From Psammoneis japonica (Eukaryota): a DNA stretch of 64,000 nt. Made by a program: the position numbers and the translations under genes. Under the pieces are notes generated by a model. That model saw only the letters and a program-made list of their open reading frames with translations. It was not told where the DNA came from and ran no database searches. Shown here in pieces: positions 11,144 to 43,423 of this stretch (its first letter is position 1; each line of letters opens with the position of its first letter). The DNA lies in contig QPGO01000029.1 of assembly GCA_008632985.1 (NCBI GenBank), forward strand, positions 508,874-572,873, in the 5' to 3' direction.

Positions 11144-11327
11144 TGAATGAATGCTGATGTGCTGTCATGGATGCAGGCAGTTTAAGCGCTGTTGGCGATT
11201 GGTCCACTGTCGCTTGTTTGGTGGCCCCAGTGGCGTGACATCTCACAATTCTAGAACCTGTTGATGCTGTTCAACACTCTGTCTTGTCTCACACCCAATT
11301 CTCAGCTGTCATGGCAGCATTCATTCA
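11144..11327 (+). repeat. 3' LTR of the family B element
   Basis: TGAATGAATGCTG...CAGCATTCATTCA; 14 mismatches to the 5' LTR by manual alignment. Confidence 0.95.
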
Positions 11328-17400: not shown

Positions 17401-19626
17401 ATTGTCAACAAAACCCTGTTTTGCCTGAGCACTGCTGCTCCAGGCTTGTCATCACATGAGGAGCAGCAGTTTGTTCCTCTTCCCTGGTGAGAGTTTGCAC
17501 ACAAGAAGAAAGCCCAGGCTTGCTCAGGATGTCTGTGACTGTGACAATGTTGATGATGTCTGCTTGGCAATGCAAGGGATGGATTTGAACCCTTGGCACA
17601 CATGCACCACTTGGTGTTTGCAGTCTGGCTGTCACAGCATGTGCACAAAATCTTGTCAACCTTGTGGGCATGCAAGCAAATGCCAATGGCAAAAATGACA
17701 GAGTGGTGGTTTTGTTGAAGCAAATGATGTTGAGGAGGAGGTGGACAACAATGATGTCAAGGTGGAGGAGGAGACAATGGCTGACAACTTGTCACAAAAT
17801 CTCCTGGAGGAGCATCTTGATGATCTCCAGACAACACTCAGGCTGACCTCAGCAGCAGTGCAGTGGATGACTTGATTGATGCCAATGAAAGCATTGTCAA
17901 TGATGATGGTGCCCCAAGCAATGAGGAGCCAATCATCTTTGTTGCCAGCAGGGCTTGCTGCAAAAAGCAACCCCACACAAGTTGGGTCCAACCAGTGCTG
18001 CAAGCAGAGCAGGCATCTTTGCAAGGACCATGGACTTGCACCTGGCAAGCTGGTGCTCAAGCAGCACAAAAACATGGACAGTGCACAGTGTTCTTTTGAG
18101 CATTGTGGTGACAAGCAACACTGTTTTGCTTTCATTTGCCCATGGCCATTTGGAGGTGCAAGGTGGGCTGGCCAGTGATTCTTTTTCTTGAAGCCCTGCC
18201 CCAATGCATTTTTCTCTTTCCTGTGCCAAGCTTGGTGAGTGGGTGTGTTCTCAAATCATTTCAAGGCAAAAAAGCAGATGTGTTCAGCATGCTGCAGGAT
18301 GGCAGATGCCAGAAATCACATGGAAAAAGTGTGAAACACCAGCCAGCAGAAATTGTCCTCAAGGTTCTTTGCCCTTTTGTCTGTGCAATGCAAGTCCCAA
18401 CAACCAACTAACCACACTCTTCCATGCAGTGCTTGGCAAGGTCAGTTGTTGTGTGGCAGTTGTCAATGCAGAGGATGTGGTCTTTCTTGTGAGAGAGGCC
18501 ACATTGATGGGTCAGAGATGAGCCTCCAGCATCTTGGGTGTGGTGTTGGTTTCTTCTGCATTGTCTTTTCTGCTGTGGATGTTGAAGAAATGCACACAAG
18601 CAGACTCAGCACAGCACAGAGCAAACACCTTCACCACATGCTTGATGGGCTTTGCCAGCATGCACTGGACAAAGGTGATGGCTCTCTCTCTCCTTGCAAA
18701 GAATCACACTGTCATCTGTCATCATCAGCTTCTTGCCACAGCTCCATCCTTTCTGAAGTTTGGAAGACAGAAGATTGAGTGTTGGAATGACTTTGAAGAA
18801 TGGGTCATGTCCTGGCAAACCTTTTGGGTGTGCTCTTGAACTCTGAGCAAAGTGAACATTTTCTGAAACCAAGTGCATCATGACTCATCACATTGCAAAT
18901 CCATGGGCACCCCCCAGCCACATGGCTCATGCTCCCAACAATGCAAGTGCAACCAACCAGAGCCCCTTGATCTGCAAAGCCTTGCTGTGGCAAGCAAGGC
19001 CAGCACACAACATCCTCTCATGAACTTGAATTTTTTCAGTTCCTGTTTGGCATCACACCTGTGCTGGGGAGTGGGATTCTCTTTGTAGAGCCTCTGAAAG
19101 TGTGGCAGGATTTCCCTTTGTTGCATGGCACCTCTTCTGTGGCAGACCTCTGATGCTGCACTCATCTCTGGTGCATGTGCAAGTCAAGTGTCCCAGGCAC
19201 CCCCAGTCTTCAGCATCTTGGTCTGCTTTCCAAGCTTCATGAGTGGCTTGTGCTGGCTGTTTCTCTGCTTGCAGAAGGTGTGCTTGTTTCTTTTGTCCAG
19301 ATTTCTTGAACTGAGACTGTCGAGAGTGACTTGTCCCATCACTTCTTGAACCTGTCACAGAACATGATGACAAGAAATGGCACCCCACAATCTGCCAACA
19401 AGTTGCGAGCATTTCCAGCAGCTGACCACTTGCAAACTTGCAGACAATGTCAAGCTGCAAATTGAGCAGCTGTGATTTGTTGGGGTGCAGCTCTCACACA
19501 ACCTTGGTGTCACTTCATGATGACACACCAGTGTGGATCCACAAAAAAGTTGCAATGCTTTCGCATTTCAGCCCACCACAGTGTGAGTGCTTTTGTGAGT
19601 GGAGCACCCTGCACATCCACTCCATG

Positions 19627-22600
19627 TGTTAGAGCATCTGGAGTGAGTGGGAAACAGAAACTCAGAAAGGAAATGTTGAAGATTTGGTGACACCTGACAA
19701 GCAAGTCTGCTTGTTGCCAATCTTGCTGACCTCATTTTGTCTCACTCTTTGGAGTGAGTCATCTGGTTTGCACAAATCTCATTGTGGCATCAGCAGGCAC
19801 CTGCTGCATTGTGAGATTGAAGTTTGTTGAGGACTTTCAGGCAAACTGCAGCTGCCACAGCAACCAGGACAAGTGTGACAAGCAGCACAGGAAACCTCAG
19901 AGGACCCCCTTTTGGTGACATTGATTTGTTGGTTCAACATTCACTCCAAATGGTCACAAGCACTGCATTTGGTGCATGGAGACAGTGACCTCCATTCAAT
20001 CATTTGACACACAGGAACCTGCCTTGTGAGCAGCAGAGAAGGAGGTGAATCTGGCAGAGGAGGCCAAGGCATCAGCCAAGGCAGAGGTGACAAGTCTTTC
20101 TGTGACAAGAACAAGAAGACCAACCTGAAGAAGAGCTTCAAACCAGAGTTTCATCTTTCATCAATGAACAGCAACTCATGCAATTGAATGTTTGAAGATG
20201 CCAATGAAAAGATCATCAATCACATGTGCAGAAGGAGCATGGTCAAGGTGCACATTTTGTGGGGTCTCTGGAAGGTGTGGCACACAGAAATTTCTCTGGC
20301 AAGAGTCCTGCATTGGCACTGCCAATGACAATGGTGCCAGAACCAGGTCAAGCAGATTGCCAAAGTGTGGCAAACAAGAGAGCATGAGAAGAAAGACAAC
20401 TCAAGCATGAGTGCAAGATCAAGCTGCACAACCACAGTGAGAAAGTGAAGAAGCTTGAAGAAAACAAAACCACTGCATTTGCAGTGATCAGTGATCCTGG
20501 ATGATTGCTGCACCAAGCAAATGAAGCAGAGAGTGCAAGCCAACCATGGTCACCAGAGGATCAGAGATGACCCCCCCAATCAAGCTGCTGAAGCTGATCA
20601 TCCAGTCACCAACACTCAACTCCATGAGAGGTTGACATCCATTCCATGCACTTGCCAAGTCCCTGAAGCACATGCTGCAAGTGAAACAATTGGAGGACGA
20701 GTCACTGAATGACCACCTGTCAAGATTTAAGAATCAATGAGATGCCACAAGCAAAGAAGGTCTTGGCAGCAAGATGCCAGATGGACTCATCAAAAACACC
20801 GAGGAGCACAAGGACTGCACCACCCCAGTGGAACAGACCACATTGAAAGACCCTGCATTCAAGACATGGATGACACACCTGTTTTCAGAGAACAGCAATG
20901 ACTGCTTCTGCAAAAGAGCCTCAAGAAGAGCCTTGCCAGAGACTGCAGCCTGGGGAGGGACTCACATCAGAAGACCCTGGAGAAGACAATGGATGCACTG
21001 CTGAGCCACCCAAAGGACAACAATCCATGCAAGAGATGGAGCAAGAAGAGTGGTGAATGTCCAAGTCTCAGGAACTAAGACAGGACTGACAACAGGTCCC
21101 AGAACCCACAAGATCAAAGTCATGCCCAGAGTGGTGATCAAGGTGGCAACACAGTGTGCTGTTGTTGTGGTGTGAACCAAACCACAAGTTCCCAGACTGC
21201 AAGTGTGAGGATGAATCCCACAGAAGAGCTGGTGCAAGGACAGTGGAAAGAAACTGGGTGCCAGGGGACATGGTCACACACAAAGAGACAAAGACCAGCA
21301 TTCATCAGCGAGCATTGACAATGCTGGCATTGACACCTGCAGGTTTCTTGGTGTTCCTCACCAAGAAATGAGGTGTTTGCACAAAAGGGCAAATTGTCTG
21401 CAATGGCAAACTGACCCCAGAATGGTTGGACAAAGATGAATCAGCGAGCCCTGCTGAACCCCTTGAAGGAATGTTGACAACAGCAATCATTGACACCCAT
21501 GAAGGACACAGTGAAATGAGCACCAATGCTCCAAACGCATTTGTGCAGATGACAACACTGGAGCCTGGAGAAGGCAAAGACCAGGTTGTGATGAAGATTG
21601 CAGGAGCACCAGTGGACATGCCAGCAAGCATTGATCCCAACCTGTGTGGACCTTGTGTGGTTCCAGAGAAAGGCAAGAGAGTCCCTCATGCCCAAGTCAT
21701 CAGAGCCATCTGCAGTGTGCCAATCTTGGCTCTGCTGTGGTGCAATCAATTTTTGGAAAGACTTGGAGAAAACAGGATTCAAGTTTGGCCCACATGTGAT
21801 TCTTTGTGCATTGCCAATCATGCAGTCAATGGCAAGCAGTGCAGCCCATGATTTAATTTCATGTGGATGACCCCATTGTTGAGCCACAAGAACCCAAAAG
21901 CAAATGACAAGTTTCTGAGCTGGTCAAACAAGATGAGCTGCAGCCATGGTGAAATTGTTGCTGCATGAGGGAAGAGACATGGCTGTTCTGGCATGACCCT
22001 GGATTTCAGCCAGAAGGGCAAAATGAGAGTTGACATGACAGACTGTGCTTGCAAGATGATTGACCAATTTCCAGAAAAGTCAAACAGTGCAGACATTGCT
22101 GTGACACTGGCTGGAGAAAAGACTTTTGACACCTGTGGGACAAGCTCATCAGATGCAAAGGCTCAGACCTTCCACAAATGTGGGTGGCCAAGAGACTGTT
22201 CCTGTCCAAGAGAGGCCAAAAGGATGTGCACCTCGCTGTCACTGCATCATGCATGGAAGTGAGAGCTCAAACACAAAGGACCTTGGAGTTGTCAAGTGGC
22301 ATGTGGACACATCATTTTTGCAGCACATCCCAATTTCAAGAGCCACGCCAAAGGAGGAGTTGTGACAATGGGTGGTGGAGCAGTGCAGGCCACTTCAAAG
22401 TGCAAGAAGCTCCACACTCCAAGAAGCACAGAAGCTGAACTTGTTTGAGTTGACAATGCCATGGCTGTGACACTGTGGACCAAGCTGTTCTTGGAACACC
22501 AAGGGCATCCAATCAAACATCCTGCACCAGGACAACAACAGTTCCGTCCCACTGGCAACTGATGGGTGCAATTGTGCCGGCAAGCAATCGCAAGCACTCA

Positions 22601-24270
22601 ACATTTGGCATTTGCTTGTTGCTGATCAGATCAAGAAGGGCAACTTAAGAGTGCAGTGTTGTCCTGCCAATGACACACTGGGGGAACAGGCCCATGGAGA
22701 GCCCTGTGGTTGCATGGGTGTCACACAACATGGAAGCTGGTGGAAACCTTGATGGAAATGGATGCCAGTCATGAAGTGCGACAATGTCTCACTGCTGCCA
22801 CACCAATGTTCTCCATTTTTGGTGACAAAGGGATTGGACCCCCACCCAAACACACTGGAGCATGCCACTGAGGCACACAAGACCAAAGATTTTTGGCAAG
22901 TCCTGGGAGCTGATTCCTGGGGACAGAACAAGCAACTGCATCTGTGTGAAGGATCGACCTCCAGCAGGTGAACAGCATTTGTGGAGCCCAAGTGGTGGGC
23001 CAGAGCAAGAGGAAAAAAGATCAGCTTTGCCTTGACAAGACCAACATTGACAAGTCATGTTGGAAACCACACATCAGTTTTCCCACCTTTGGCATGAGCA
23101 AGAATGGGATTTGTGGTCCCCTCATGAAGCTCCAGAAGCTGGATCCTGTCAAAGCACAAGATCGATGAAGCCTCATGCTGGATGCTGAAGGAGTTGTTTG
23201 GGATGCCAGGAACTTGGCAGCATTTTCTTGCCATGAGACCTGATGACCACACCTCCTTGAGAGGTGGCATTGCTGCACTGACATGGTGCATCTGGACTTG
23301 GCTCCAGAGAGGACAATCAATGGTTGGGTCATGGACCAGCTTGAGCATGTGGAAGACAAGAATGAGAAAGAGAAATGTCATTGCACTCATGTGGAGCACT
23401 TTGTGAAGAGTGCACAGAGAGCTGCACGTGCATTGGATGACATGATTGGCCACAGCACCGATGGCAAGAATGCTCATTTGCATGTTTGTGAGTCACAGGA
23501 TGTTGAGAATCCTCAAGTGAGTGGCAGTGACACCAAGAGTCTTGAGCAGACTGATGAGCCACAAGACCACAATGAGTCTGATGAACACATGAACCACGTG
23601 AACAGCAGAACATCACTGCAAGTGTCTGCCAGACACACACCCCACACTGTCACCACATTGGGCACATGAGCAAGAGCTCCCACCAACAAGGATGTGGGGA
23701 AGCCAGTCCTTCATCTCAAGCATGTGAGCTGGGCAAGAAATGAAGTCACTGCAGCAAGGGTGAGAAGGACCTCCAAGTTGTCAAGTGGCATGTGAGCACA
23801 TCATTTGCAGTGCGCCCCAATTTCAAGAGCTGTGCTGGAGGAGTTCTCATGACAACAAGCAACAGAGCAGTGCAGGTCATCTCAAAGTGCCAGAAGCTCA
23901 ATGCCTGAAGCAGCATGGAAGCTGAACTTCTTGGAGTCAATGATGCCAGGGCTGTGATGCTGTGGACAAAGCTGTTCATGGAACACCAAGGGCATCCAAT
24001 TGACAAAAACATCCTGCATCAGAACAACAAGAGCACTGTCCTGCTGGAGACTGGTGGGCACAAGAGTGCCAGCAAGTGGTCCCAAGCACTCAATGTGTGG
24101 CATTTCTTTGTTGCCAATCCGATTGAGAAAGGCAACTCACAAGTGCAGTGTTGTCCTGCCAATGACATGCTTGGAGAGTTCATGACTGAGCTGTCACAAG
24201 GCAAGAAGTTTTTAAAGTTTAAACAAGCCATTGTGGTGGGTGGCTGGCTTCAAGCGAGACAGGCATGAGT
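19627..24270 (+). mobile_element. Decayed, internally deleted copia family A, copy 2
   Basis: Putative LTR 19627-19781, PBS-like TGGCATCAGC 19785-19794, gag remnant ~20040-21290, RT remnant (DKDESASP...MLTTAIIDTHEG...PNAFVQ, 21426-21851; MTLDFSQKGKMRVDM), RNase H remnant (EAELLGVNDA...HQNNKSTVLLE, 23915-24268). Similar to 1-4449 in the opposite orientation. Confidence 0.8.
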
Positions 24271-26276
24271 CCTTTTTTTTGTGATGTCAGATGAGAACAT
24301 CAATGCATGTGGGCAAAAGATCCCTGACACACTGATGTGCACCAAGCCAAATGGTTCAACAGCAATCACAATCTGTGGCTGCAATCGATTGATGAAAAGA
24401 TGAATGACAACTGTGATTTCAGATTGATCACATGAGGTGACCAACAACTGCAAGTTTGAGCTGGGGAACGGTGATGACATCCTCACCCAATGGCAGCCAT
24501 GGGACCATTGGGGTGGGTTCTGCAACCTTGAAAAGCTGGCCTGCAAGAACTTGAGAGATTGACGTGGTGCAACAAGGAACATGTCCAAGGGTTGCATGAG
24601 AGCAATGCATGGAGATTGGCACTTCATCCCAGTCCTTGCATTCATTGCAACACTGTTGATGCATGTGAAGTCAAGAGGTTGTGTGAGAGAATGAGGATCA
24701 AGGATCCAAGCCAGTGTTCCCAGCCTGGGGAATGGACAAGAAGGGCCTGTGGAGAGCCCTGTGGTGGTTGCAGAGCTGCCACAAAATGAAGGAGCTGCAG
24801 GTTGCACCAGATTTCTTGCAGATTCTCACTGTCATGCCTCATTTGGACATGCCAACAAGCAGTGGGCTTGCTGACTTTTCCATTGTTCTCATGACTGTGG
24901 TGCACACAAGTCTGCGAGCACCGCACTTGTCTCCAATTTGGATGGCCTGCCGTGCATCTGCTGATGAGTGTGCACATGCTGTCAGCATCGTGTTTTTTTT
25001 TCATGACAGGCACAGAATTGCCAAAATGACATTTTGATTGTCAAGCAAGGCAGGCAACAGTTTTGTTGACAACACACAATGCACCATGTGTGACTTTCAG
25101 CTGGGAGTGATGACACGTGTCCCAGCCAGCACACATTGACACGGCAACACACCATTGGATCTGTCATGCCAAATTGGTCTGCTGCACTGCAACTCATTGC
25201 TTTAGAAGCCTTGTGCTTGTTGATTTTTTGGCCAACAACACTGCAGCTTTGTTTTTTGTTCCTCTGTTGACTGCATGATGCAGTGCGTGCAACGTGCTTT
25301 GTGATCGGACAGCGCGGGAAATCAGGCCATGCAATGGATGGGAGCTCCAAGCCACTGGTGACCAGATCTGTGAACAGCTGCCAAGCTCACTCCAAATCCA
25401 TGCTCAGATGGTTTGGAGCAGCTGTCCTTCCTTGAAACTGTGTGTTGTTGACACCTGAGCTGAATTTGCCGCCTGTGGGCACCTTGGCCGGTGAACCACC
25501 CTCCTCCTTTCCTCAAACCAGCAAACGGCAATGGGGTCGGCATTGATTTTGCACTGCTCTTTTTCTGAGCTGAAGTTGCACCAGAGGGTCTGGTGGTTTC
25601 ACTCCAGTTTGGCAGATCTTCGGCTGCATTGTTGTCATTGTCCAACTCGCCACCCTGGCTGTGTCAGCTGCAGAGCGGCCTGAAAGTCTGCTGTCTCCAG
25701 CAAAGACTCGGCGGGAGCAAATTCACTGGTTGTGTCAGCTCCTGACCACTCCAGCAATTTGTCATCTTCCAGGATGCCTTCATCACATGCAGAGCACAAA
25801 TCATCACTGTTCTTGCTCTTGTGGGTGCACTCCACAACAACCGATCCATCGTCAGTGTCAAAAACAAAGCCACACCTTGAGCTCCAAGCTGCAAAACACC
25901 ATGTCATGCTGGCATGGCATCTTCCTCATTTTCATCACTTCAAAAATGCCAGAGTGTCAGTGCGAGTGCAGGAGAATGCAACAAAGCAAGAACGGCTTAA
26001 ATGTGCTATGTTTTGGTTGCCCTGCGGTGTTTTGCATTTTTCGATGCTGTTTCATGCAATGTGCTGAGAAAAAAGCAAAAAAAAAACGCGTGTTCCGAAG
26101 TACGAGCTATGCAAGCTGTTATTCTCGCTCCGTATGAACGTCGTTCCAGTTCTGCGGCATTCTACGGCCTTCGCCGCGAACAAATCTTTCACAAAGACGA
26201 ACGCCATTGCCGATCGCCATTGCCGATCGCCGCTGCGCTGCTTTTGCCATCGATTGGTTGGTCACATTGCAACATC

Positions 26277-27226
26277 ATGTTTGGTAACGTTGAAGCTGTC
26301 GGAAATAGCATTCTTGATATAGGCGCTGGTGGTAGCTCCGCAGTCAAGCCTCAGCCGATGATGCTTGGAGAACCCGGGGCGTTTGACATTCCTAATGTTT
26401 CAGATGTGAGTACTACGTTGTGTTGTTTCTTATCAGTGCCGATTGTAGCTTCCTCTTTTGTTTGTATGTGGGCGACTCACCTGTAACGCCTCGTAAATAC
26501 ATGCTTATTGTACAGCCAGCTCGTTACTGCCGCTCCAACACGGCGTCTGCGTCGGGCAACAAGGACTCGGCGCAAGAAGTCAAGTTTGCCAAAGGTACCA
26601 CGACGCTCGCCTTCAAGTTCAACGGCGGAATCATTGTATCGGTAGATTCTCGTTCCACCATGGGAAATTACATTTCCTCCGGTACAGTCAAGAAGATTAT
26701 CGAGATTAATCCCTTTCTGTTGGGAACCATGGCTGGCGGTGCTGCTGACTGCTCCTTTTGGGAGAGGAACCTCGGTGTACAGTGCCGCATGTACGAACTC
26801 CGCAACGGACGTCGCATCTCTGTGGCGGCAGCGTCCAAGCTGCTTGCAAACACCATGAATGCCTACAGGGGTTATGGACTCTCCATGGGCACCATGATTA
26901 CCGGTTGGGACGAGACCGGACCCCAGCTCTATTATGTGGACAATGACGGTACACGCCTCAAGGGAAAGTACTTTAGTGTCGGATCCGGTTCGACCTATGC
27001 CTACGGTGTGCTCGACACGGATTATCGAGAGGATCTTACGGTGGAAGAGGCCATTGACCTTGGAAAGCGCGCTATTTACCATGCCACTCATCGGGACGCG
27101 TTCTCTGGCGGCATCAACAATCTCTACCATGTCACCAAGGAGGGATGGGTAAAAGTTCACGCGATTGATGTCAATGACATGCACTATGAGTTTGCGGAAG
27201 AAAGGGCAGCTCGTGCGGCAGCGTAA
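26277..27226 (+). CDS. PSMB5: 20S proteasome subunit beta type-5 (two exons: 26277-26405, 26516-27226)
   Basis: Propeptide cleavage motif [41 protein letters not shown]. Phase-0 GT...AG intron 26406-26515. Confidence 0.96.
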
Positions 27227-27363
27227 TGTGTTTGCGAGCGAAAACAGCACTGCTGTAGTAGTCGGCATTCATCATTTAGGACTTTCTGAATTAGTCGTAC
27301 AGCACCTATATCCCGCAGATTGTGTGTTTGTATTGGATGTTGTTGCATCTAGATATTATGTTG

Positions 27364-27531
27364 CAGTGTGTGATGCTCTCAAATAGTGCTGGACATTGCC
27401 TCAGAAAGAAGTTTACTGTCTAGCGCCTGTTTGGCGGCAAAGACAGTCAGTGTGTGATGCTCTCAAATCGTGCTGGACAGTGCCTCAGAAAGAAGTTTAC
27501 TGTTTAGCACCTGTTCGGCGGCAAAGACAGT
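27364..27531. repeat. Tandem duplication of an 84-bp unit
   Basis: CAGTGTGTGATGCTCTCAAAT...GGCGGCAAAGACAGT at 27364-27447 and 27448-27531, with a few mismatches. Confidence 0.9.
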
Positions 27532-28353
27532 CTTTTGTTGCACTGCAAGGAACTGACAGGGGGGATGAGGGGCTTCAAAAATGGACTGGGGGCAACTGCG
27601 AAGATTTCCCCAAGAGGGGTCAGAAGTCCCAAGGGCGGGCTGTGCGAGCTGGCCTCAACACTGAAGAAGCAACACAAGTGCTGCCATTCCTTCTTTCTCT
27701 GGGAATCTGTTTTTGTGCACATTGACTGCCAGTGCAGCAGCAACTGCATGGCAGATTTCAATGAGGAGGCTGGTGCTCTGACAAAACTTCCTTCTTTTGC
27801 TCCTCTTTTTCTCACGACTCTTTTGCCCCAAGCTTCTTTTTTGAGTGCCCTCCAGAAGCACCCCCCACTCTGTTTGTTGGGCAGTGCACATTTGTTTTGC
27901 CCCCCCCCCCCCCCCTCTCTCTCTCTCCCTCTCTGTCAGAATTTCAGCTTGCGCGCCCGGTGCTGCCGTGGCTCAGCAGCCATCACACAGCGACGGCCAA
28001 GAACTCAAAGTGACAAAGGGGTCACTTCAAGAAGGGCAACTTGGCACAGCAGCAGTGAAAATCAGCAGCAGCTCAAAACAGAGCCAGCGCAAGCACCAAG
28101 CCGCTGGCTTTCTCTCTCAGCATGTTGTTGCCCCTGCTGCTCTTGCTTGTCTGGGTGCCACCAAGTTGTGCCACAAAAGCAGCAACACCTTGACTCTTTT
28201 TGAAAGCATTAACTTTGTCATGTTGTAGGACCAAGCAAGGTGAAACTTAAACTGACTGCTTTTGTTTTAGTTCCACATTGTGCAATGCAATGAAACTTTT
28301 CTTTACACTTCATTTAACAAAATAATTGCCCTCTTCTCAACCAGCAAAACATC

Positions 28354-28424
28354 GCGGCTATGGTGTAGTGGTAACATAAATGCCTTCCAAGCATTTGCCA
28401 TGGGTTCGATTCCCGTTAGCCGCA
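28354..28424 (+). tRNA. tRNA-Gly (anticodon UCC)
   Basis: Acceptor stem GCGGCTA/TAGCCGC, D-loop TAGTGGTA, anticodon arm AATGC-CTTCCAA-GCATT, T-loop GGTTCGATTCC, downstream T-run. Confidence 0.95.
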
Positions 28425-30322
28425 CTCGTTTTTAGGCGGCTGTGCTTTTTTATTATTTTCGCTTTTCATCGTACGTGCGTTGTGCGTGCATGCATTGGCG
28501 ATTCAAAATCCACTCGAGCGAGCGAGCGAGCGAGCGAGCGCGATCCAAGAAACTTCTTCCTTCCTTGCTTTCCCTTGGTCAATTGGCCAACGCAACCTCA
28601 ACACATCAAACACAAAATGAACATCATGCATGTGTTCGAGTCTCGACACGATTTGTTGTTGCGTCCACTGCGTTCACTGTGTTCATTGCGTTCATTGCGC
28701 TCTTCATTCTGAGTTCGACAGGCCCCATGTTTGGCAGAATGAATCTGCATGATGCGACACACTTTGCAAGTTGCAAGTGAGGACTTTTTGGAGCCACTGT
28801 CTGCTGTCTCTGTGCAATGTTGATTTGTCTCCTGTTCGGCATTTTGCAGCAGAAGCGCCGGCATGTGCCGCAAACGAAACGCTCGAAAAACGGCAAGGCA
28901 ACGACGTTGTGCAATGTCTTGCTGTTTGTCATGGGCATCTTGTGCCATTTGCTTTGTTTGCATTTTTGTGCATGTGTGTTGTTGCTTGTGTGTTGATGTG
29001 CTTTGAGATGCACCACTTGCTTCGATTGACATTTCGTCATTTGCCGAGCCGTTTTTTGTGCGAACATGGTGAGCATGTGTTGTGCAACATGCAACGAATC
29101 ACGAGGACAACGAATGAATTTTGTGCATCTGACAAAAGTGCTCTTTCTTTCTTTTGCAGACAATCAATGACACTGGTCCAATTCTGTCCTCCAATGACGC
29201 CGCTCTGACTGAAGCTCTGCACGTGTTGATGATGGTCCAAGCCCAAGTCCATCCTCCAAGAACGACAAGAAAAGCTGCGTCATGTGACAATGTCGACGAA
29301 CGGCACTGACAAAGCAGTGTCTTCATTTCTGCATCTTTCTGTGCCATCGGATCTACAGAGAAAGGCCGCCGAACGACTCGCACCTTGCCAATCCAGGGTT
29401 GTTGTCACAGGTCCACAGCAACTTCAAAAGCACCTTCCTCAAGACATGCCTCTTCACACCCCGCTTCTGTGGCAGAGTTTTAGAGAGTTGGACACTGTCC
29501 GACAATGCATGGGCGTTGCTGATTTTTCACAGACCTTGTTTGTCGCATTCGGCCATCTCATGCAATGCAAACAACAGTGCAACATCTTGTTGTGTTTTGC
29601 GAGTTCAAGAGTGACAAGATGTGAGAATGCCGACAAAAAACCGGCAGTGCGAGGACAGACCATCCGTGACTGATCAGGCGGGATTGATGCTTGCACGAAA
29701 TTGGCGCGCCGGAATTCCGCGGTCATCAATCTCAGAATCGACAAAAGGAAGGCGACTGTTGCATCGAGCAGCTTTGTTTTTTGACTGCTCTTTGAAAGGT
29801 GAGCATTTGTCTCCATTCACATCAATGTCTTGTGTGGTTTGTACATTGAGCATGATTTTCACTTCTCGTTTTTGGTTTGTCGTCGTGCCGATCATTTGAA
29901 CGCAAGAGTCGACGACTCCATCGGCACACGAGGTGCATCCGACGTCAATTGACTCGTCGTGACAGTGTCACACCAACAACGTTTTCCCCAGGTGAGCATT
30001 GAATCGACAATGCTGCTCTTCAATGATTTCCTCTTTGTGGAACAATGTGTTGCTCATTGACTGCTTTGTTTGGTGCTGACTGGTTGTTGGATCGATGTCG
30101 TTCAGCGTGTCGGAAACGATCGCACTGCAATGCAACGAGCACGCTACACTCGACTCCGCATTGGTGGAAGTGCACCTGTCGCTGTCATTCGGCACGGTGA
30201 GTGCAAAACCACATTGTTGTTCATGTTGCGCTCTTTTTTGTTTCTGGTTTGTTTCTGACAATCCATTGTTTGCTGTGGTGATGCCGAAGGATTCGCACTG
30301 CAGCTGGGTGTGTCGCATCACC

Positions 30323-32977
30323 ATGCCTCCCAAGCTGCACAAGCCCCTGGACAAAGGACAAAGGACTGTTGGCACCTTTTTTAGTCCCCTGGCCACTGCT
30401 CATGCAGCAGCTGGCGTCACAAGAAAGTTCAGGACTGCTGCCAGGACTCCTGCCATTGCGCTCCCAGTGAAGCGAAAGGTGGCCGAGACACCCGCGAGAG
30501 AGAAGTCCAAAGCTCCCAAATTGACCAAGCAAGCCACACTGCCTGTTGCTTCTTTCTTCCAATCACCACCGCCCGCCAGAGCCATTGATGCCCCCTCTCC
30601 AGTTTCGACTGACACTGACTTGCTTGCTGCCAACACTGCAGCCACCGACACCGACTCGTCTGCTGCCAGCACCGCAGCCACCGACACCAACTCGCCCACC
30701 GGTGCTGCCAACGTTGCAGCCACGGACACCGACTCGCCTGCCACTCACTCCTCAGTCACCACTGACACCGACTTGCTTGCCTCAAACAAGGATGACAACT
30801 GTGATGGCAAACAGCCATTTTACACCAAGGAAGAAAAGGAGCTTCTGGAACTAGAGAAGAAGCTGCAGGGACAAGAGCCCTTTGCTGACGACATGTCCGA
30901 TGGTCAGAAGGAGAAGTGCAATCGACATTTCGTGATGAAGATTGGTGGCGACCCAACGGCACGGAAGATTGCCAAGCCATTTGCTGAAAAGGCGTTCAAA
31001 ATCTTGAAGGAATCCTTGGAATTTGAAGATCCAAATGGACATCATTCACAATTTCTTGCATCTACGAAAAATGCCACCACGTGGGGTGGGACTCATGCTC
31101 GAATGGACCCAGAGCTTGAGCAAGTGCAAGGTGTGGGTGTGAGCACCAATTTTGTCAATCGCCGAAAGTGTCGGATTGAAAATGCAGGTGTCATCCCGGA
31201 GCAGTTTCGGGTTCTAGTGTCCCTTGATTTGATTGACGTTGAGGTCGAGAAGGAGCTTGTTCGCAATGTTGTGGATCCATTCATCAAGGCCATGGCAACC
31301 AATGAACTACTTCATCCATGTCAACGATTGTTTCATCAGCAGATTCGTGATCGTGGTGGCAATGTCCTTGGTTTCAAGAGGCAGGCACTGTTCCAATTGG
31401 TCGAGACAGGCATTCAGCTCCACTGTGGCTTGTTGAGCACACAAGAGCTGGCAATGTTTGATCATCAAGTTGCAAACAACTGTTGCACAATGGCGAGTGG
31501 CAGCTCGGAACGCATCTTTTCAGATTTACAACCGGTCGTGCGGTTTGCCAAATTCAACAATGCCAAGGTGTTTGTTCGTGCAATTGGTTCTTGGAAGCCT
31601 GGCCACAATGGCATGTCGAGCAACTGTGAGACAACCAATTGTGTCGTGGGACAAGAGCACATGTGGAGCGACACAATTGGCTTTCCTGCATTTGAGAATG
31701 CAAAGGGTGCGGATCAAATCTTTTCTGCCACCCACTCACCAGAACAGCGGGCAGGCGGGGACGCAGAAATGGACTCGGCTGTTGACGAGGTCGAAAGCCA
31801 CATTTGTGGCATTGGTGTTGTTGATGCGAACCACATTGTTTGCGTCAAGGATGAGGTGTTGTTGGAGAAGTTTGTCAAACGTGGCTACGAGTTGGCACGC
31901 CGGGAGGTTGACAATGAAATGATGGTTCTGGTCCATCCATCCAGGCCCCATGCATTTTTGATCAACCGACCCTTGTGTTTTGCCAGCGACAGTCGCAGCG
32001 AGATTCCCATGGCATGCAGAGCTCGTTGTGCTCTCAGCGCTGCTACGCTCACTAATGTTTTTCGATGCATCCGAGACGAGGAACCGCTCTGCCCGACCGA
32101 CGACTGTGTGAACCCCATCAACGCGATCCTTTCTTTCCAGACTGGACGTCTGGGATGCCGCCAGCACCCATTTGCCTGCAGTGCAGCCTTCCGCGACCTT
32201 GTCACCATGGAAGAAGTCCATGCATTGAAGGACAATAATCTCCCCAAGATGGACCCCAATGATGCGTTGACGTGTCGGTCTCGGTGCTGCAGCAGGAGAT
32301 TCCCACCAGAGCTTCTAGAGGGAAAGCGTGAGAATGATTCATTGATCATGGCCAAGGCACGTTGTCTGATTAGTTTGGCAAAAGCTGGAGAGGAGCAACA
32401 AATGTGTTGTGCCTTTAGGGAACTGCTTGAGAGCGGGGTTGGTGAAAACAATTCCAAAGCTTTGAGCTTGCGATTCAGAGACTTTCTTGGATGCCACATT
32501 CTCCCAGACTCGGAGCTTGGTTCTATTCTGCAAAAGCATTGGAGAGAAACGGCGGGCAATTGCAGCAACACAAGTGGCAGCGGGCAAACCAAAGACGAAA
32601 AGACAGACAGAGATTCAAAGTTGAAGGATCTCATGGAACGGTTTGCACCAGGCGAGGACGGCAAGGCTGGAGAAATGTTTTGGACTCGAGAGGTTAGAGC
32701 GCCATTTCCACCTGCTCCCGCAGAAGGTGAGCCCAGTGATTTGCCGACAAGCAGCCCCAGCATCACATTTCTGGGCAACATTTTTGTTTGTCACGGTCAC
32801 ACTGAGGGTTCCATTCGTGGGCGTGCGAAGAACGTAGTCCGACAAGGCAGCACCAATCATGCAACGTCGGCTGATTGCAACGATGTGTCCATTGTTGCAG
32901 TGACGCATGCGGGGAAATCAATTGGGACAAAGCCTGAAGAGGAAGGCTGGATCCTTTGTCAATTCATCAAGAAATGA
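30323..32977 (+). CDS. Unknown ~885-aa protein, repeat copy 1 (frame open but TpA-eroded, so possibly non-functional)
   Basis: Long ORF (probable start MPPKLHKPL at 30323) with an N-terminal T/D/S/A-rich low-complexity segment, highly similar to 35105-37759. Confidence 0.6.
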   Translation: MPPKLHKPLDKGQRTVGTFFSPLATAHAAAGVTRKFRTAARTPAIALPVKRKVAETPAREKSKAPKLTKQATLPVASFFQSPPPARAIDAPSPVSTDTDLLAANTAATDTDSSAASTAATDTNSPTGAANVAATDTDSPATHSSVTTDTDLLASNKDDNCDGKQPFYTKEEKELLELEKKLQGQEPFADDMSDGQKEKCNRHFVMKIGGDPTARKIAKPFAEKAFKILKESLEFEDPNGHHSQFLASTKNATTWGGTHARMDPELEQVQGVGVSTNFVNRRKCRIENAGVIPEQFRVLVSLDLIDVEVEKELVRNVVDPFIKAMATNELLHPCQRLFHQQIRDRGGNVLGFKRQALFQLVETGIQLHCGLLSTQELAMFDHQVANNCCTMASGSSERIFSDLQPVVRFAKFNNAKVFVRAIGSWKPGHNGMSSNCETTNCVVGQEHMWSDTIGFPAFENAKGADQIFSATHSPEQRAGGDAEMDSAVDEVESHICGIGVVDANHIVCVKDEVLLEKFVKRGYELARREVDNEMMVLVHPSRPHAFLINRPLCFASDSRSEIPMACRARCALSAATLTNVFRCIRDEEPLCPTDDCVNPINAILSFQTGRLGCRQHPFACSAAFRDLVTMEEVHALKDNNLPKMDPNDALTCRSRCCSRRFPPELLEGKRENDSLIMAKARCLISLAKAGEEQQMCCAFRELLESGVGENNSKALSLRFRDFLGCHILPDSELGSILQKHWRETAGNCSNTSGSGQTKDEKTDRDSKLKDLMERFAPGEDGKAGEMFWTREVRAPFPPAPAEGEPSDLPTSSPSITFLGNIFVCHGHTEGSIRGRAKNVVRQGSTNHATSADCNDVSIVAVTHAGKSIGTKPEEEGWILCQFIKK

Positions 32978-35104
32978 TGGACTTCATGGGTGGAACAATG
33001 TAGGGTGACATTCCTTTAGACTAAATTTTGGGCGGTTGAGCTTTTGCATCATACTTAGGCGGCTGTGCTTTTTATTATTTTTGCTTTTTGCAGTTCGTGC
33101 TGCACGCGTACGTGGTCGGGATGGCGGAAGGACGCAGAAAACCAAGGGAAGCAAGGAATGCAGGATTTTTTGGATTGTTTCACATAAGTTTCTGCCACCA
33201 TCATCAAGCGATGTGCGTCGCCTATCTTCCTTTACAGTAGCCTTAGGGTTGCCTGTTGCTCGGCACACTTGTGCTGACTGTGACAATGTGTGTATCCTCC
33301 ATCCATCTGTCTTTGCTGAAGCAGAGCTGCTGTTAGTGGTCAAGTGCTATATTGTCATTTGCAAGATGATTCTGAAACGACACAAGTCAGTAGAAGCGAC
33401 ATCCGAATTCTTATGGCGTCTATTTTCCTTTCTATGGATTGATCGTATCGCATCTGGTGAGCATTTGATGCGTGCTCTTTTGAACTTTTGTTGTCACTCC
33501 AGCACTCCATTCTTTACTTGCATTGTTTTCTCTTACGCTCTTTATTTCTTTTCTTCAGATTATGCCAACAGGAAACGACATACGCCATCCCTTGTTGACA
33601 GACAAGATGAAATAACTATTGTATTCATTGAGTCTCCACACGCTTTTTGCTGTGTGTTGGTATTTATGCTCTTTGGTTTTGCTGAAGATCAGCGTTGCGA
33701 CTTTGGGTATGGCAATAATTCGTTTTGGTGGCTTGAGACAGAGAGACATCCTTTTCTGCCATAGTTACCGGTCTAAAGTCATTAGCGAGAACGAGTGGTA
33801 TTGAAGAGAACAATCTCTCCATCTGCTAGCTACCGGTGGATTGTGGATTGCTGTGTTTGTATTATTGGTAAGCGACGCACCATTTCACTCTCGGCATCAT
33901 TTCGTCATTTCAATAGCTACTTGTCTCACACTCTGTCTATTCTGTTTTTATCAACATTATCAGAGGGGAGACGAGCATCGTGCCTCAATGTCTGCAAAAT
34001 GGTCACCTGCGCAATGTCGACGAACGGCACTGACAGAGCGGTGTCTTAATTTCCGTGTCTTGTTGTTCATTTCGATCTACACAGAATGGCCACCGAACGA
34101 CTCGTACCTTACCAATCTAGGGTTGTCGTCATAGGTCAAGACTTTGTGGTGACGAGTGTCAGCGAGTTACAGAAACTGCAGACGCACCTCGCGGCGTGCC
34201 GGCCCAAGACGAAGCCATCACTCATTTCATTCGAAGCACAGTCGTATTCGTTAACCAGAACGCACGGCATTCACACCAAGCAATCTCCCTGTCTGCTGTA
34301 AATTATGGAAAACTCTGTATTATTGGCAAGTTGATTACCATCTACAAGAAAGATGCTTTCTCTCACGGCATCGCATCGTTTACTTGATTGTTGCTGCTTG
34401 TCTCACTGTGCTTTGGATTCTCTATCATTGGGGCCTAAAGCCTGGCCACTGGTGCTGCAGTGGAGAGTGGGAGAGCCACAGCAGTCAATGCAATTAATGA
34501 ATGCTCGATTGTGCTCGCTGGCAAGTGTCAGTGCCATAGGTGTGCTCGCCTATCTACTCTCTACTCTCTAGCTAGTAGAGACAGTGTCTCCGCACCTCCG
34601 ACTCACGATTGACTCTCACGACTGAGAGATGAAAGATACGAATCACATGTCCAGAATGTATATGTTCAATACAGAGTGGCATTTTTTCGGCGCGTTTCGC
34701 CTCATTGATCAAACAAAAAACAAAGCGAGACATCACTCTACTCTCGTTATTGCACTTGCTTTTGGTGCGGCATTCCTTCTTTACCTCGTTTCATTTTCCT
34801 CATTCCGCTGTCGATGTGTGATGCTGGTGCTCACATTGGTTGTTACTTGTTGTTTGTTTCGCCATCTCAATGGTGACAGGAGACGAGTGCGAGATGCGAA
34901 GCTCTTCGTGCAGCTCGGCATTGGAGGCTGTGCACCAATCGCTGGCATGCGACACGGTGAGTGCTCAATCACATTGTCATTCATGCTGAATTCTTCTTTT
35001 GTCTCTGATGTTCATCTGGTCATTCGTCATTCTCATTGTTTGTCATGTCGTTTGCTCTTGTGATGCCGAAGGATTCGCGCCGCAGCTGCATGTGTCGCGT
35101 CATC

Positions 35105-37759
35105 ATGCCTCCCAAGCAGCATGAGCCCCTGGCCAAAGGACAAAGGACTGTCGGTGCCTTTTTCAGTCCCCTTGCCAATGCCAATGCAGCAGCTGGCATC
35201 ACAAGAAAGTTCAGGACTGCCACCAGGACTCCTGCTGTTGCGCTCCCAGTGAAGCGAAAGGCGGCCGAGACACCCACGAGAGAGAAGTCCAAAGCTCCCA
35301 AATTGACCGAGCAAGCCACACTGCCTGTCACCAGTTTCTTCCAATCACCACCGCCTGCTGGAGCTGTTGACACCCCCTCTCCAATTTCGACTGATGCCCA
35401 CTCGTCCACTGCCAGCACTGCTTCCACCGACACCGACTCGTCTGCTGCCAGCACCGCAGCCACCGACACCAACTCGCCTGCCGGTGCTGCCAACGTTGCA
35501 GCCACGGATGCCGACTCGCCCACTGCTCACTCCTCAGCAACTGCCGACACCGACTTGATTGCCTCAACCAAGGATGACAACTGTGGTGGCAAACAGCCAT
35601 TTTACACCAAGGAAGAAAAGGAGCTTCTGGAACTGGAGAGGAAGAATCAGGGACAAGAGCCCTTTGCTGATGACATGTCCGATGGTCAGAAGGAGAAGTG
35701 CAATCAACATTTCGTGATGAAGATTGGTGGCGACCCAACGGCATGGAAGATTGCCAAGCCATTTGCTGAAAAGGCGTTCAAAATCTTGAAGGAATCCTTG
35801 GAATTTGAAGATCCAAATGGACGTTGCTCACAATTTCTTGCATCTACGAAAAATGTCACCACGCGGGGTGGGACTTGTGCTCGAATGGACCCAGAGCTTG
35901 AGCAAGTGCAAGGTGTGGGCGTGAGCACCAATTTTGTCAATCGCCGAAAGTGTCGGATTGAAAATGCAGGCATCATCCCGGAGCAGTTTCGGGTTCTAGC
36001 ATCCCTTGATTTGATTGACGTTGAGGTCAAGAAGGAGCTTGTTCGCAATGTTGTGGATCCATTCATCAAGGCCATGGCAACCAATGAACTGCTTCATCCA
36101 TTTCAACGATTGTTTCATCGGCAGATTTGTGATCGTGGTGGCGATGTCCTTGGTTTCAAGAGGCAGGCACTGTTCCAATTGGTGGAGACAGGTGTGCAGC
36201 AACACCATGGCTTGTCGAGCACTCAAGAGCTGGTGATGTTTGACCATCAAGTTGCAAACAACTGTTGCGAGACTGCCAGCTGCAGCTCGGAATGCATCTT
36301 TTCAGATTTACAACCGGTCGTGCGGTTTGCCAAATCCAACAATGCCAAGGTGTTTGTTCGTGCAATTGGTTCTTGGAAGCCTGGCCACAATGGCATGTCG
36401 AGCAAACGTGAGACAACCAATTGTGTTGTGGGACAAGAGCACGCACTCAGTGACATGCTTGGCTTTCCTGCATTTGAGAACGCAAAGGGTGCGGATCAAA
36501 TCTTTTCTGCCGCCTGTTCACCAGAACAGCGGGCAGGCGGGGACGTAGAAATGGATTCGGCCATTGACGAGGTCGAAAGCCACATTTGTGGTGTTGGCAT
36601 TGTTGACACGAACCACATCATTTGCGTCAAGGATGAGGTGTTGTTGGCGAAGTTTGTCAAACGTGGCCACAAGTTGGTGCGCCGGGAGGTTGACAATGAA
36701 ATGATGGTTCTGGTCCATCCATCCAGGCCCCATGCATTTTTGATCAACCGACCCTTGTGTTTTGCCAGTGGCAGTTGCAGCGAGATTCCCATGGCACACA
36801 GAGCTCGTCGTGCTCTCAGCGCTGCTGCGCTCACTAATGTTTTTCGACGCGTCCGAGATGAGGAACCGCTCTGCCCGACCGACGACCACATGAACCCCAT
36901 CAACACGATCCTTTCTTTCCAGACTGGACATCTGGGATGCCACCAGCACCCTTTCACCTGCAGTGCAGCCTTCCGCGACCTTGTTGCCACAGAAGAAGTC
37001 CATGCATTGAAGGACAACAATCTCCCCAAGATGGACCCCAATGGTGCGTTGACGTGTCGGTCTCGGTGCTGCAACAGGAGATTCCCACCAGAGCTTCTAG
37101 AGGGAAAGCGTGAGAATTGTTCATTGATCATGGCCAAGGCACGTTGTCTGACCAGTTTGGCAAAAGCTGGAGAGGAGCAACAAATGTGTTATGCCTTTGG
37201 GGAATTGCTTGAGAGCGGGGTTGGTGGAAACAATTCCAAAGCTTTGAGCTTGCGATTCAGAGACTTTCTTGGATGCCACATTCTCCCAGACTCAGAGCTT
37301 GGTTCTATTCTGCAAAAGCATTGGAGGGAAACGGCCGGCAATCGCGGCAACACAAGTGGCAGCGGGCAAACCAAAGATGAAAAGACAGACAGAGATTCAA
37401 AGTTGAAGGATCTCATGGAACGGTTTGCCCCAGGCGAGGACGGCAAGGCTGGAGAAATGTTTTGGACTCGAGAGGTTAGAGTGCCATTTCCACCTGCTCC
37501 CGCAGAAGGCGAGCCCAGTGATTTGCCGACAAGCAGCCCCAGCATCACATTTCCCGGTGACATTTTTGTTCATCACTGTCACACCAAGGATTCCATTTGT
37601 GGGCGTACGAAGAACGTAGTCTGACAAGGCAACACCAATCATGCAACGTCGGCTGATTACAACGATGTGTCTGTTGTTGCAGTGACGCATGCGGGGAAAT
37701 CAATTGGGACAAAGCCTGAAGAGGAAGGCTGGATCCTTTGTCAATTCATCAAGAAATAA
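35105..37759 (+). pseudogene. Unknown protein, repeat copy 2, premature stop at 37622-37624
   Basis: Colinear with copy 1. CGA in copy 1 is TGA here, and homology continues to the original stop near 37759. Confidence 0.75.
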
Positions 37760-39443
37760 TGGACTTCATGGGTGGAACAATGTAGGACAACATTCCTTTA
37801 GACTGAATTTTGGGCGGTTGTGATTTTTCAAAATGGGGCACATTCGCTCGTGATCACACGTTACGAAATCCAAGGGAAAGCAAGGGAATGAAAAACCAAG
37901 GGACGGAAGGTTGGCAGAATGCAGAAAAAACACCACAAGTGTCATTTTTTCATGCATCGCTTGCTGCGCTGTGGCCTTCTTCAGCCTTGCCTTGCAGTTG
38001 TCGACTGCCCGCCAAGAACATTGTTCATGTTGACTGCAATCTGTTGGAGCTGAAATGGCGTCATTGCTGTGGTCAAGAGAATTTCACATCACATGGCAGC
38101 TCTTCTTTGTGGTGTTCGTTTCTTTCTTTTGGGCTGCAGTCAAAAGGATGTGATCATGCGCAAAGTCTTGAATGCGTGAACAATTTGTTCACTCACTCAC
38201 GTGTGCTTGGCTTGTTTGAATGTTTGTTGTTGCTTCATTTGTTGCTTGTGCTCTTTGTTCTTTTTCGCTGATTGGAGTGGAGGGGAGACGTCTGTTGACT
38301 GACACGGTCAGTTTGATTCATTGCACAAGGCAAGAGACTTGCACAATTGTCTCCATTTGTGCACAAGATGCATGTGCTTCAGCTCTCTGTGTTGACAAAT
38401 GCTCTTGATCTGGCTCCACTCGTTTCTCTTGTTTGAATTTGGTTGCTGCCGGGCGGTCCATTCGAAGACACACCTCAAGACATGTGTTGCCTCAACATGC
38501 ACCTCAAGACACACAGCACCTCAAGATGCACAACCACACGGGCTTTTGTTCTTGTTTTTTGTTGCACTTGGATCTGCCTCAAGAAATGCAGCATCTCATT
38601 TCTTGCTCATTGATGATGACATGTTGGCACCGAAGCTTCAATTCTCTGTCTCTGTCCAAAGAGTGTTGGTTGCACCCATTTTGCAGTGCACTTCTCTGCT
38701 GTCTGGCCTTTTGTAAGAGCGCAGTGGGCACTGCACAGTGCCGCATCTTTCGGCCAATGTGGGACCTCATCTGGAGCTCTGGAGAGAGGCCCCGCTGTCA
38801 TGTTGTTGGATGGAGAGCAAAGATGGATGAAGCAAGACGCCGGTGCAGCACAATTGAGGTGCACGTGCCTGTCATCATCAGTCCCTGTGACCACAATTCA
38901 CACAAGACCCAGATCACATGGCTGTGTTCAGGATGGTTGTTGGCAATTGTGCAACTTTTTTCTGGCGTGTCATCTCCCCTCACTTCTTCGGCAAAACGCA
39001 ACGAGATGAGAGACCCATCATGGCACTTTTGGTCTTTGCCCCTGCTGTTGGTGAGGTTTGCCTTATGACCCATTTAGTGCATTTCCTCATTCTGCATTCT
39101 GACATTGATGTTGTGCTCACATTGACTGTTGTTGTTGTTGTTGTTGTTGTTGTTCGTTGTAGATTTGTGCCAATGTCTGATGAAGAGAACGAGACACTTT
39201 GCTCGACTCGCCATTGGTTGCACATCACAACCATTGGAAAAGGCAAGCTGCACTGTTGATCTAATTGCTCTGCAATGCTTTCTCATTGCATTTTTTCTCA
39301 TTCATCCATCGTCACAAATTTCTCACATTGTTTGCAATTTTTGTTGTTGTTGTTTGTTCAGCTGTCTCAAAAGTGATGGGAAACAAGGACTCGATGTACA
39401 AAGCTCTCAGCATTGACAGCACACCAATCACTGTCATTCAGCC

Positions 39444-40745: not shown

Positions 40746-41207
40746 CCTGGTGTTTTCTTTTCAGTTTCATTGCATCAGCCTGGCGGCGAAGAATGATGTT
40801 AACTCCGTTTCTGGTTTTGCGGTGTTGCTTGGTGTCGGCCGGAGTTTGGCGGCTGCTGTCTGGACTGTCGGAGATACAGTGTTGACTCATCTTTCGACAC
40901 ATTCAAAGCGCGCGACTGCTGCGTCAACCGTCCAAGAATGCGCAAGGCTTGAATCTCCTCAAATTTCGCTTGTCGCTACTCTCTGCTTCAGCTGCCTCTC
41001 TAATAGCGGCGTCGCGGCAGCGCTAAGCTATGGGCATTATAGCTCTTGTGAGGCTAAAGAAGTGCGTTGCTACTCTAGCTAGCTTATACTTCTGTACGTA
41101 TCTTCGAGCTGAAAGACGCCATGCAGTACAAGCATTGTAAAAGTCTATTCATCGTTCATGTCTAGAGAAGTACTAGTCCAATCAACCCCCATCAAGTTCA
41201 TGCCCTT

Positions 41208-43423
<2,216 letters not shown>

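Follow-up and report, generated by a model that had tools for sequence, protein, structure and literature searches.

TpA-depleted repeats and TpA-normal gene islands in a diatom: a candidate case of targeted transition hypermutation

Described systems and the diatom locus

Targeted hypermutation of repeats is known essentially from fungi, and only as a change of C to T. In fungal repeat-induced point mutation (RIP), described in Neurospora and others, duplicated DNA undergoes fast transition hypermutation, each copy independently and with a dinucleotide preference, and the process stops near the repeat borders, leaving neighbouring single-copy genes intact. Here, I describe a pattern that recalls these features in a 64,000-nucleotide stretch of the diatom Psammoneis japonica (contig QPGO01000029.1, positions 508,874 to 572,873 of the forward strand; the whole stretch is called the window, and all coordinates are counted from its first letter). 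Some ~36 kb of transposon and duplicated DNA is affected, in which nearly every TpA (TA) has been changed to CpA (CA) or TpG (TG), and the genes for the proteasome subunit PSMB5 and for a tRNA-Gly lie in TA-normal islands with sharp edges. The translation of PSMB5 exon 2 matches 5581 proteins at E 1e-20 or better, of which the best 120 are 80-90% identical and, where named, come from diatoms (Synedropsis, Proboscia, Helicotheca, Discostella, Seminavis and others), which identifies the window as diatom nuclear DNA.

The differences from RIP concern direction, coding outcome and host. RIP converts C to T, chiefly CpA to TpA, with a TA-rich result, whereas here TpA becomes CpA or TpG and the result is TA-free; RIP makes stop codons, whereas here TAA and TAG are removed and a 1240-codon Copia frame survives; and the host is a diatom, not a fungus. 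As for the requirement of a duplicated segment, the tandem units and the dispersed repeat of this locus (TE-A) were mutated independently and three edges lie at the ends of homology, but one 5' long terminal repeat (LTR) was spared. RIP itself was rejected as the class of this process, its defining direction being absent from the 9 informative LTR differences, from 20 of 23 conserved tyrosine columns and from TA observed/expected ratios of 0.03-0.08. Diatom DNMT4 is related to RID, its function being unknown, according to a passage of PMC9998398.

Vertebrate CpG islands are alike in that islands of normal dinucleotide content, non-coding parts included, stand at expressed genes and promoters within transition-depleted DNA. 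Unlike them, the present islands concern TpA, the loss around them is near-total and fast (0.03-0.08), and the depleted background is repeat DNA and not the whole genome; no base modification at TpA is known in diatoms. An intact RNA polymerase III gene beside silenced-looking DNA recalls the tRNA-gene (tDNA) barriers of budding and fission yeast. Editing of retroelements by ADAR or APOBEC3 likewise produces clustered transitions in transposons, including A-to-G changes with a preference for a 5' T/U. Such editing precedes integration, is strand-asymmetric and leaves the LTRs identical, whereas at this locus non-retroelement DNA is mutated too; it is ruled out by the near equality of CA and TG, by tyrosine replacements of 11 His versus 9 Cys, and by an LTR pair differing at 14 of 185 positions.

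A chemical comparison is offered by the dinoflagellates, whose 5-hydroxymethyluracil is made by TET/JBP enzymes, is enriched in repeats, silences transposons and favours T in TA and TC, as told in passages of PMC11572971; unlike at the present locus, those passages describe no mutational footprint. Neither this base nor its enzyme has been shown in diatoms, the literature matches listed being all from dinoflagellates or Symbiodinium by title. By analogy, it is a possible chemical lead for the TA process. Oxidised thymine (5-formyluracil) mispairs with G, and TadA-type deaminases prefer T-A-C. No description of repeat hypermutation from TpA to CpA or TpG was found in the literature searched, nor does one appear in the passages retrieved from PMC9998398, PMC9258296, 10.1101/2025.01.10.632494, PMC11572971, PMC11071213 and PMC11804724; the underlying phenomenon is apparently new and its mutator apparently undescribed.

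Direction, timing and signature of the TpA loss

Over the whole window the observed/expected ratio of TA is 0.32 and that of CA and TG is 1.46, the TA figure being the sum of two states. Most of 1-40970 lies at 0.03-0.08, with CA plus TG at ~1.6-2.0 times expectation where TA is absent. From left to right, depleted segment 1-4300 holds 12 TA (0.04; CG 0.09), a partial island at 4301-5260 holds 24 (0.41; CG 0.86), and depleted segment 5261-25990 has 68 in 20,730 bp (0.06). The PSMB5 island, 25991-27510, has 67 (0.70; CG 1.04), followed by a depleted spacer at 27511-28205 with none in 695 bp (CG 0.28, AT 0.38) and the tRNA island at 28206-28480 with 16 (0.68). Thereafter depleted segment 28481-32990 has 21 (0.08), an island at 32991-34850 has 83 (0.61), depleted segment 34851-40970 has 28 (0.07), and the normal domain 40971-64000 has 1004 (0.65). 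The alternation of TA-poor and TA-normal DNA is confirmed and strongly non-random; the TA that survive in depleted DNA are only mildly clustered (variance/mean 1.5 in 300-bp bins).

The direction of change is recorded in a Copia-type LTR retrotransposon (4633..11328, plus strand; LTRs 4633-4817 and 11144-11328; pol open reading frame 7269-10991), recognised by its LTR pair, CACG on both flanks, a purine tract before the 3' LTR, an RVT_2 match (E 3.5e-12) and a weak match to rve, and having homologues of up to 70% identity. The LTRs of one element are identical at insertion; in this element they are 92.4% identical. Nine of the 14 differing positions have TA in the 5' LTR versus CA or TG in the 3' LTR, two others form a CA/TG pair, one is CG versus TG, and only one is a transversion. 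There are 11 TA in the 5' LTR versus 2 in the 3' LTR, the 2 standing in the resistant contexts TTAA and CTAG.

The pol protein bears the same mark. In 23 alignment columns, Tyr is shared by at least 80% of 40 homologues; in these columns the element has Tyr at 2, His at 11, Cys at 9 and Arg at 1, so that 20 of the 23 conserved tyrosines are now His or Cys; conserved Ile is kept in 10 of 18 columns, Thr and Met being the commonest replacements, and the remaining conserved residue types show 75-100% retention. The Copia frame is 0.32% Tyr, versus 2.86-4.59% in the 120 homologues listed. Among related elements elsewhere, 79 metagenome Copia loci have TA observed/expected ratios of 0.46-0.95 (median 0.66); an earlier metagenome scan with the mutated Copia protein gave 38 pattern matches, of which 0 were confirmed. 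The LTR differences, the loss of Tyr and the TA-normal relatives together therefore establish that the change runs from TA to CA or TG, in place and after insertion, and that the loss of TA is no general property of the element's family.

Since TAA and TAG are erased by this process and no new in-frame stop can arise from it, long open frames, the 1240-codon Copia frame included, persist in depleted DNA: 129 open frames of at least 120 codons occur in the whole window, and depleted DNA is rich in long frames on both strands. The Copia polyprotein frame 5994-10991 is broken only by stops at 6354-6356, 6780-6782 and 7266-7268, which, if read as TGA, would fit CpG decay from CGA to TGA rather than the TA process.

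Duplicated DNA repeats the observation. A tandem unit of ~2.9 kb is present in three copies, the third partial: unit 1 (30154..33048), unit 2 (34914..37830) and unit 3 (39593..40743), all on the plus strand and all TA-depleted. Units 1 and 2 are 90.7% identical, unit 3 is 84-85% identical to both, and the homology between units 2 and 3 starts at 34847 (family D18). The dispersed repeat TE-A (1..4305; strand unassigned), depleted of TA and CG alike, has an inverted copy at 19708-21753, with 73% identity by self-BLAST. Recoding the letters as purine or pyrimidine raises identity from 92.4% to 99.5% for the LTRs, from 90.7% to 97.5% for the units and from 73% to 89-91.5% for the TE-A copies. All three tandem copies and both TE-A copies were mutated independently once they had been duplicated.

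Between units 1 and 2, 253 of 2895 aligned sites are different, transitions accounting for 196, with 43 CA/TG double differences, 14 sites of TA versus CA/TG and 49 of CG versus CA/TG. Judging by the CG counts, few of the double differences would stem from CpG, and the rest would imply ~100 ancestral TA lost independently in each copy, which suggests a TA loss of ~92-95% per lineage against a background change of ~2%. The differences fall 89:67:90 on the three codon positions of the long open frame, so the copies drift neutrally. Unit 1 carries a 965-codon open frame, for which no homologue was found at E 1e-5 or better among 8000 candidates and no usable Atlas match was returned; the 965- and 871-codon frames (30080-32977 and 35009-37624) are both without homologues and neutrally evolving.

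CA and TG are about equal in every depleted segment and His to Cys stands at 11:9, so both strands are affected equally. Survival of TA depends strongly on its flanks: R-TA-Y sites are preferred as targets, whereas those of the form Y-TA-R resist (R, purine; Y, pyrimidine). Relative to normal DNA, survival is 0 for ATAT, 0.01 for ATAC/GTAT, 0.03 for ATAG/CTAT, 0.036 for GTAC, 0.04 for ATAA/TTAT, 0.085 for GTAA/TTAC, 0.11 for CTAC/GTAG, 0.13 for CTAG, 0.26 for CTAA/TTAG and 0.34 for TTAA, values which are reproduced by an additive model with one term per flank. Among 63 polarised events, in which some sites are counted twice across copy pairs, 36 products are TG and 27 are CA. A rule by which the 3' neighbour of the changed A decides the product direction (log-likelihood -44.2) does no better than a coin flip (-43.7), and its mirror does worse (-52.6); the letters would fit A (in 5'-T-A-Y) or T (in R-T-A) as the target alike, and only the mirror assignment is disfavoured.

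A signature of methylation-type CpG decay is found as well, with CG observed/expected ratios of 0.09 in 1-4300, ~0 in 15000-25500 and 0.41-0.77 elsewhere, CpG being gone, like TA, in the two former, older-looking tracts. TA loss is complete also where CpG is near normal, as in 28501-30250 (CG 0.75-1.1), and the TA process must therefore be much faster than CpG decay, which is present but separate and does not explain the loss of TA. The long depleted tract 5261..25990 (no strand assigned) consists of the Copia body, the TE-A copy and other, unrecognisable DNA, with CG near 0 from ~15000 to 25500. Apart from Copia, its open reading frames gave no significant Pfam match, and in the depleted DNA at large Copia matches alone passed the Pfam scan (26 + 135 + 5 open frames scanned).

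Islands, edges and what sets them

PSMB5 (coding sequence 26277..27226, plus strand) has its exon 1 ending at 26405, a GT..AG intron at 26406-26515 and exon 2 at 26516-27226; it matches Pfam Proteasome at E 3.8e-53, and its assignment to beta-5 rests on the 80-90% identity of the best 120 relatives, several of them named '20S proteasome subunit beta 5' by their sources. A contig of public run X2 joins 26242-26405 to 26516-27297 across the GT..AG intron and ends in a loose A-run behind 27297. As the initial annotation had it, TA is back at this gene and persists through the intron and the 3' flank. The promoter region has it as well, and over ~25998-27505 TA is at the local norm of 0.65-0.70. 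The intron and both flanks contain TA, at 1-8 per 100 bp within the island, flat and without gradient, and the island reaches ~150-250 bp past the spliced contig on each side. Its left edge is abrupt, as claimed; the claimed position of 26.0-26.1 kb is too exact, for TA stand at 25998 and 26007 and the next only at 26101, so that the edge can be placed only within ~25990-26100. An A-run, AAAAAAGCAAAAAAAAAA, occupies 26069-26086, exactly where the eroded DNA left of PSMB5 stops; it may represent a poly(A) tail left by a retroposed element, and no reverse-transcriptase signal was found to the left of it. At 26142-26143, upstream of PSMB5, a contig of a second public run, X1, has AA versus CG in the window, which reflects either allelic variation or a difference in assembly. 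The right edge of the island holds two tandem 84-bp copies (27364..27532, strand unassigned; 94% identity), both of which keep TA.

TA then vanishes for about 700 bp, as had been noted: at 0.0436 TA per bp the 695-bp spacer should hold ~30, the probability of none being ~7e-14, and no stretch without TA exceeds 205 bp in the normal 23 kb. Within the spacer no Pfam match was found, and within the window no repeat partner; it is very AT-poor (AT dinucleotide observed/expected 0.38), with a C-run and CT repeats at 27889-27941. Alignments between spacers by purine/pyrimidine-coded BLAST reached only ~70% identity, were meaningless and were discarded.

The return of TA around the tRNA, non-coding flanks included, likewise holds: the tRNA-Gly gene (anticodon TCC; 28354..28425, plus strand), intact by ARAGORN and Rfam (tRNA, 68.3 bits) and followed by a T-run, lies in a 263-bp island extending 144 bp upstream and 47 bp downstream of it. 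The further proposal that this gene may act as a barrier, as in yeasts, is not supported. A tDNA barrier separates a silent from an active side, whereas eroded DNA lies on both sides of this island (0 TA in 695 bp on the left; observed/expected 0.08 on the right), which makes it an island rather than a barrier and a further single-copy unit that was spared. The tRNA 3' flank (28432-28466) recurs as a 35-bp copy at 33055-33088, 94% identical and with TA kept in both; the position of this copy at the opening of the island at 33-34.8 kb suggests that the tandem-unit duplication may have begun directly behind the tRNA.

Two islands come in addition to those of the initial annotation, neither with a strand assigned. 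The partly protected one at 4310..5259 comprises 327 bp of flank, the 5' LTR and the first ~440 bp of Copia; the other, at 33001..34844 between tandem units 1 and 2, has the tRNA-flank copy and a 126-bp homologue of 29288-29413. At the far end, the edge near 40970 is real, the last sparse TA being at 40875 and TA being dense from 40977, and it lies, as stated, just past the 3' end of a protein-kinase gene on the minus strand, labelled NDR in that annotation (Pkinase match 42612-43214, E 1.8e-23). The TA-normal domain thus opens with this gene (40971..43400, minus strand), over which a multiply spliced contig, its joints of the CT..AC type, extends from 41063 past 43000; in 28.5-41 kb the Pfam scan found no kinase, the kinase being at 41-43.4 kb on the minus strand.

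That the edges might be assembly joins was examined in run X1, which contains 0.87 of the sampled words of 25001-35000 and whose contigs were built separately from reads, at a word depth of ~51-73. These contigs match the depleted stretches 23088-23793, 24141-24715, 24687-25620, 37759-39116 and 39165-40307 with 0-2 other letters, over pieces of 565-2345 bp. Single contigs bridge the edge at 27505-27531 (contig 25977-27859), the two edges at 28205-28210 and 28472-28481 (27942-28506) and that at 40970 (40656-43000); these four edges are therefore not assembly joins. X1 contigs also join 29194 to 34074 and 30591 to 35455, skipping ~4.9 kb, and a form with one tandem unit fewer, from another haplotype or a paralogue, is probably present in the same sample. 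Run X2, of the same sample, is presumed to be DNA, and part of the depleted DNA is without X2 cover, which is not evidence of silence; its intron-less PSMB5 and spliced kinase contigs would nonetheless seem to resemble complementary DNA (cDNA). No RNA run is among those listed as containing the locus, and no contig of a third run, X3, could be placed on the window. For PSMB5 and the kinase gene alike, the island falls on a unit represented by a spliced, cDNA-like contig.

Elsewhere, repeat homology breaks off within 5-50 bp of at least three other edges. TE-A can be aligned up to 4305, and the adjoining island has its first TA at 4310; the alignment of unit 1 stops at 33048, TA being present again from 33001 on; and the match to unit 3 sets in at 34847, next to the final TA of the island at 34844. 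On this ground the mutator is read as targeting repeat units. Short homologies inside islands (126 bp, 35 bp and the 84-bp tandem) keep their TA, and in the pair 34012-34137 (island) versus 29288-29413 (depleted) the partner has lost TA, in four polarised events; such retention in short island homologies and loss in depleted partners would be expected of a repeat-limited process.

The reading that I favour, at a probability of roughly 55%, is that of a targeted and very fast transition hypermutation, changing TA to CA or TG (A:T to G:C on either strand), whose substrates would be repeated, silenced DNA: the Copia element, the dispersed repeat, the three-copy tandem duplication and older, unrecognisable material. 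PSMB5 and tRNA-Gly would never have been substrates, being single-copy, expressed DNA left between mutated units, and the sharp edges would be the borders of those units; by analogy with fungal RIP, where this is the rule, they may be plain borders of repeated units for which no barrier is required. Either repeats or silenced chromatin would be what is recognised, and active promoter chromatin would probably add protection, as the sparing of the promoter-bearing 5' LTR suggests.

Several observations weigh against this reading. The 5' LTR and the next ~440 bp of Copia are largely spared though as repeated as the mutated 3' LTR, so that being repeated is not by itself what decides the target. 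Contig depth sums to 171-284 over the island 33001-34844, versus ~60 for single-copy DNA, yet its TA is normal; this island may be multi-copy itself. Conversely, the depleted stretches 27511-28205 and 37759-40307 look single-copy at a likeness of at least 90%; they may be old, diverged copies. The PSMB5 and tRNA edges could be tied to no element terminus. Finally, X1, which rules out joins and polishing errors, may be the assembly's own sample and is no independent isolate.

The strongest competitor, which I consider rather unlikely, is that a state of chromatin or transcription spreads along the chromosome and is halted at active units, with PSMB5 and the tRNA gene serving as barriers or insulators as tDNAs do in yeasts. 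The initial annotation had argued that targeting probably follows chromatin or transcription rather than selection on codons alone. Its negative half stands, given that TA is normal in non-coding DNA too: in the promoter region, intron and 3' flank of PSMB5 and in the flanks of the tRNA. Its positive half stands in part: the PSMB5 and kinase islands match spliced-contig units, the PSMB5 and tRNA islands exceed their transcribed units, the 5' LTR is spared and the 3' LTR mutated, and the PSMB5 edges are common to CpG depletion, all of which a spreading state would explain. Against it stand the three edges at repeat-homology ends, the eroded DNA on both sides of a tRNA gene that stops nothing, and the disappearance of TA at 28501-30250 where CpG is nearly normal, which shows that the loss is not simply tied to the footprint of CpG decay.

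Less probable still is a strictly RIP-like pairing of homologous DNA above a length threshold, with unique DNA untouched and chromatin irrelevant. The independent mutation of all three tandem and both TE-A copies after duplication, the edges at homology ends and the sparing of 35-126 bp homologies are what it predicts. It is opposed by the sharp contrast in TA loss between two LTRs of one element, which it would have to ascribe to later gene conversion or to other family copies without that part; by the multi-copy look of the TA-normal island 33001-34844; and by depleted stretches without a detectable partner in the window, though partners could lie elsewhere in the genome.

A sequencing or assembly artefact, arising from chimeric joins or from the misreading of a base that is modified at TA where chromatin is silent, would suit the random-looking choice between CA and TG and the likeness of the domains to chromatin domains; it is largely refuted already and most improbable, as X1 contigs reproduce the depleted sequence and bridge four edges, no CG is created at eroded sites, and the context rule and neutral copy divergence fit real mutation. 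Equally improbable is compositional selection, in which elements avoid TA intrinsically (because of a TA-reading nuclease, UA-directed RNA decay or TA-targeting transposons) and TA, and locally CG too, is avoided as in some viruses, for the LTR pair dates the changes after insertion, conserved tyrosines are replaced, the changes are neutral by codon position and the 79 related elements elsewhere are TA-normal.

Neighbouring genes and meaning of the pattern

Beyond 40970 the normal domain carries a telomerase reverse transcriptase gene at 52491-55844 (Telomerase_RBD, E 1.4e-28; RVT_1; TERT_C), near which are found an SDR gene (44054-45649), a RING-finger gene (46020-47645, minus strand), an ankyrin-repeat gene (50822-51967) and an HMG-box gene (61253-62359). 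Its stretches 47501-48250 and 59501-60750 are AT-rich (GC 0.36-0.46) with TA observed/expected ratios of 0.8-1.37, that is at or above expectation, the opposite extreme to the eroded DNA.

Returning to hypermutation of repeat units, its chemistry would be either the deamination of adenine or a mutagenic modification of thymine at TpA, and the process might serve genome defence. Put together, and tentatively, at a little less than an even chance, this diatom would possess an A:T-to-G:C DNA mutator as a genome defence, a 'reverse RIP', which rewrites every TA (and with it Tyr to His or Cys) in transposons and duplicated genes without making stops. It would consist of an adenine deaminase acting at 5'-T-A-Y or of a thymine-modifying enzyme acting at R-T-A, whose product mispairs, and expressed genes, tRNA genes and active promoters would be epigenetically exempt, giving rise to 'TpA islands' comparable to CpG islands.

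For annotation, TA-free DNA without TAA and TAG gives long false open reading frames in all six frames, which gene finders would over-call. The pattern points to a natural DNA activity that turns A to G (or T to C) with an R-TA-Y preference, and the sharp islands would let one read directly from the sequence which DNA the cell handles as 'self, in use' and which as 'repeat, silenced'. If true, this would be a second and chemically different answer to the problem of repeats, found in an unrelated eukaryotic lineage.

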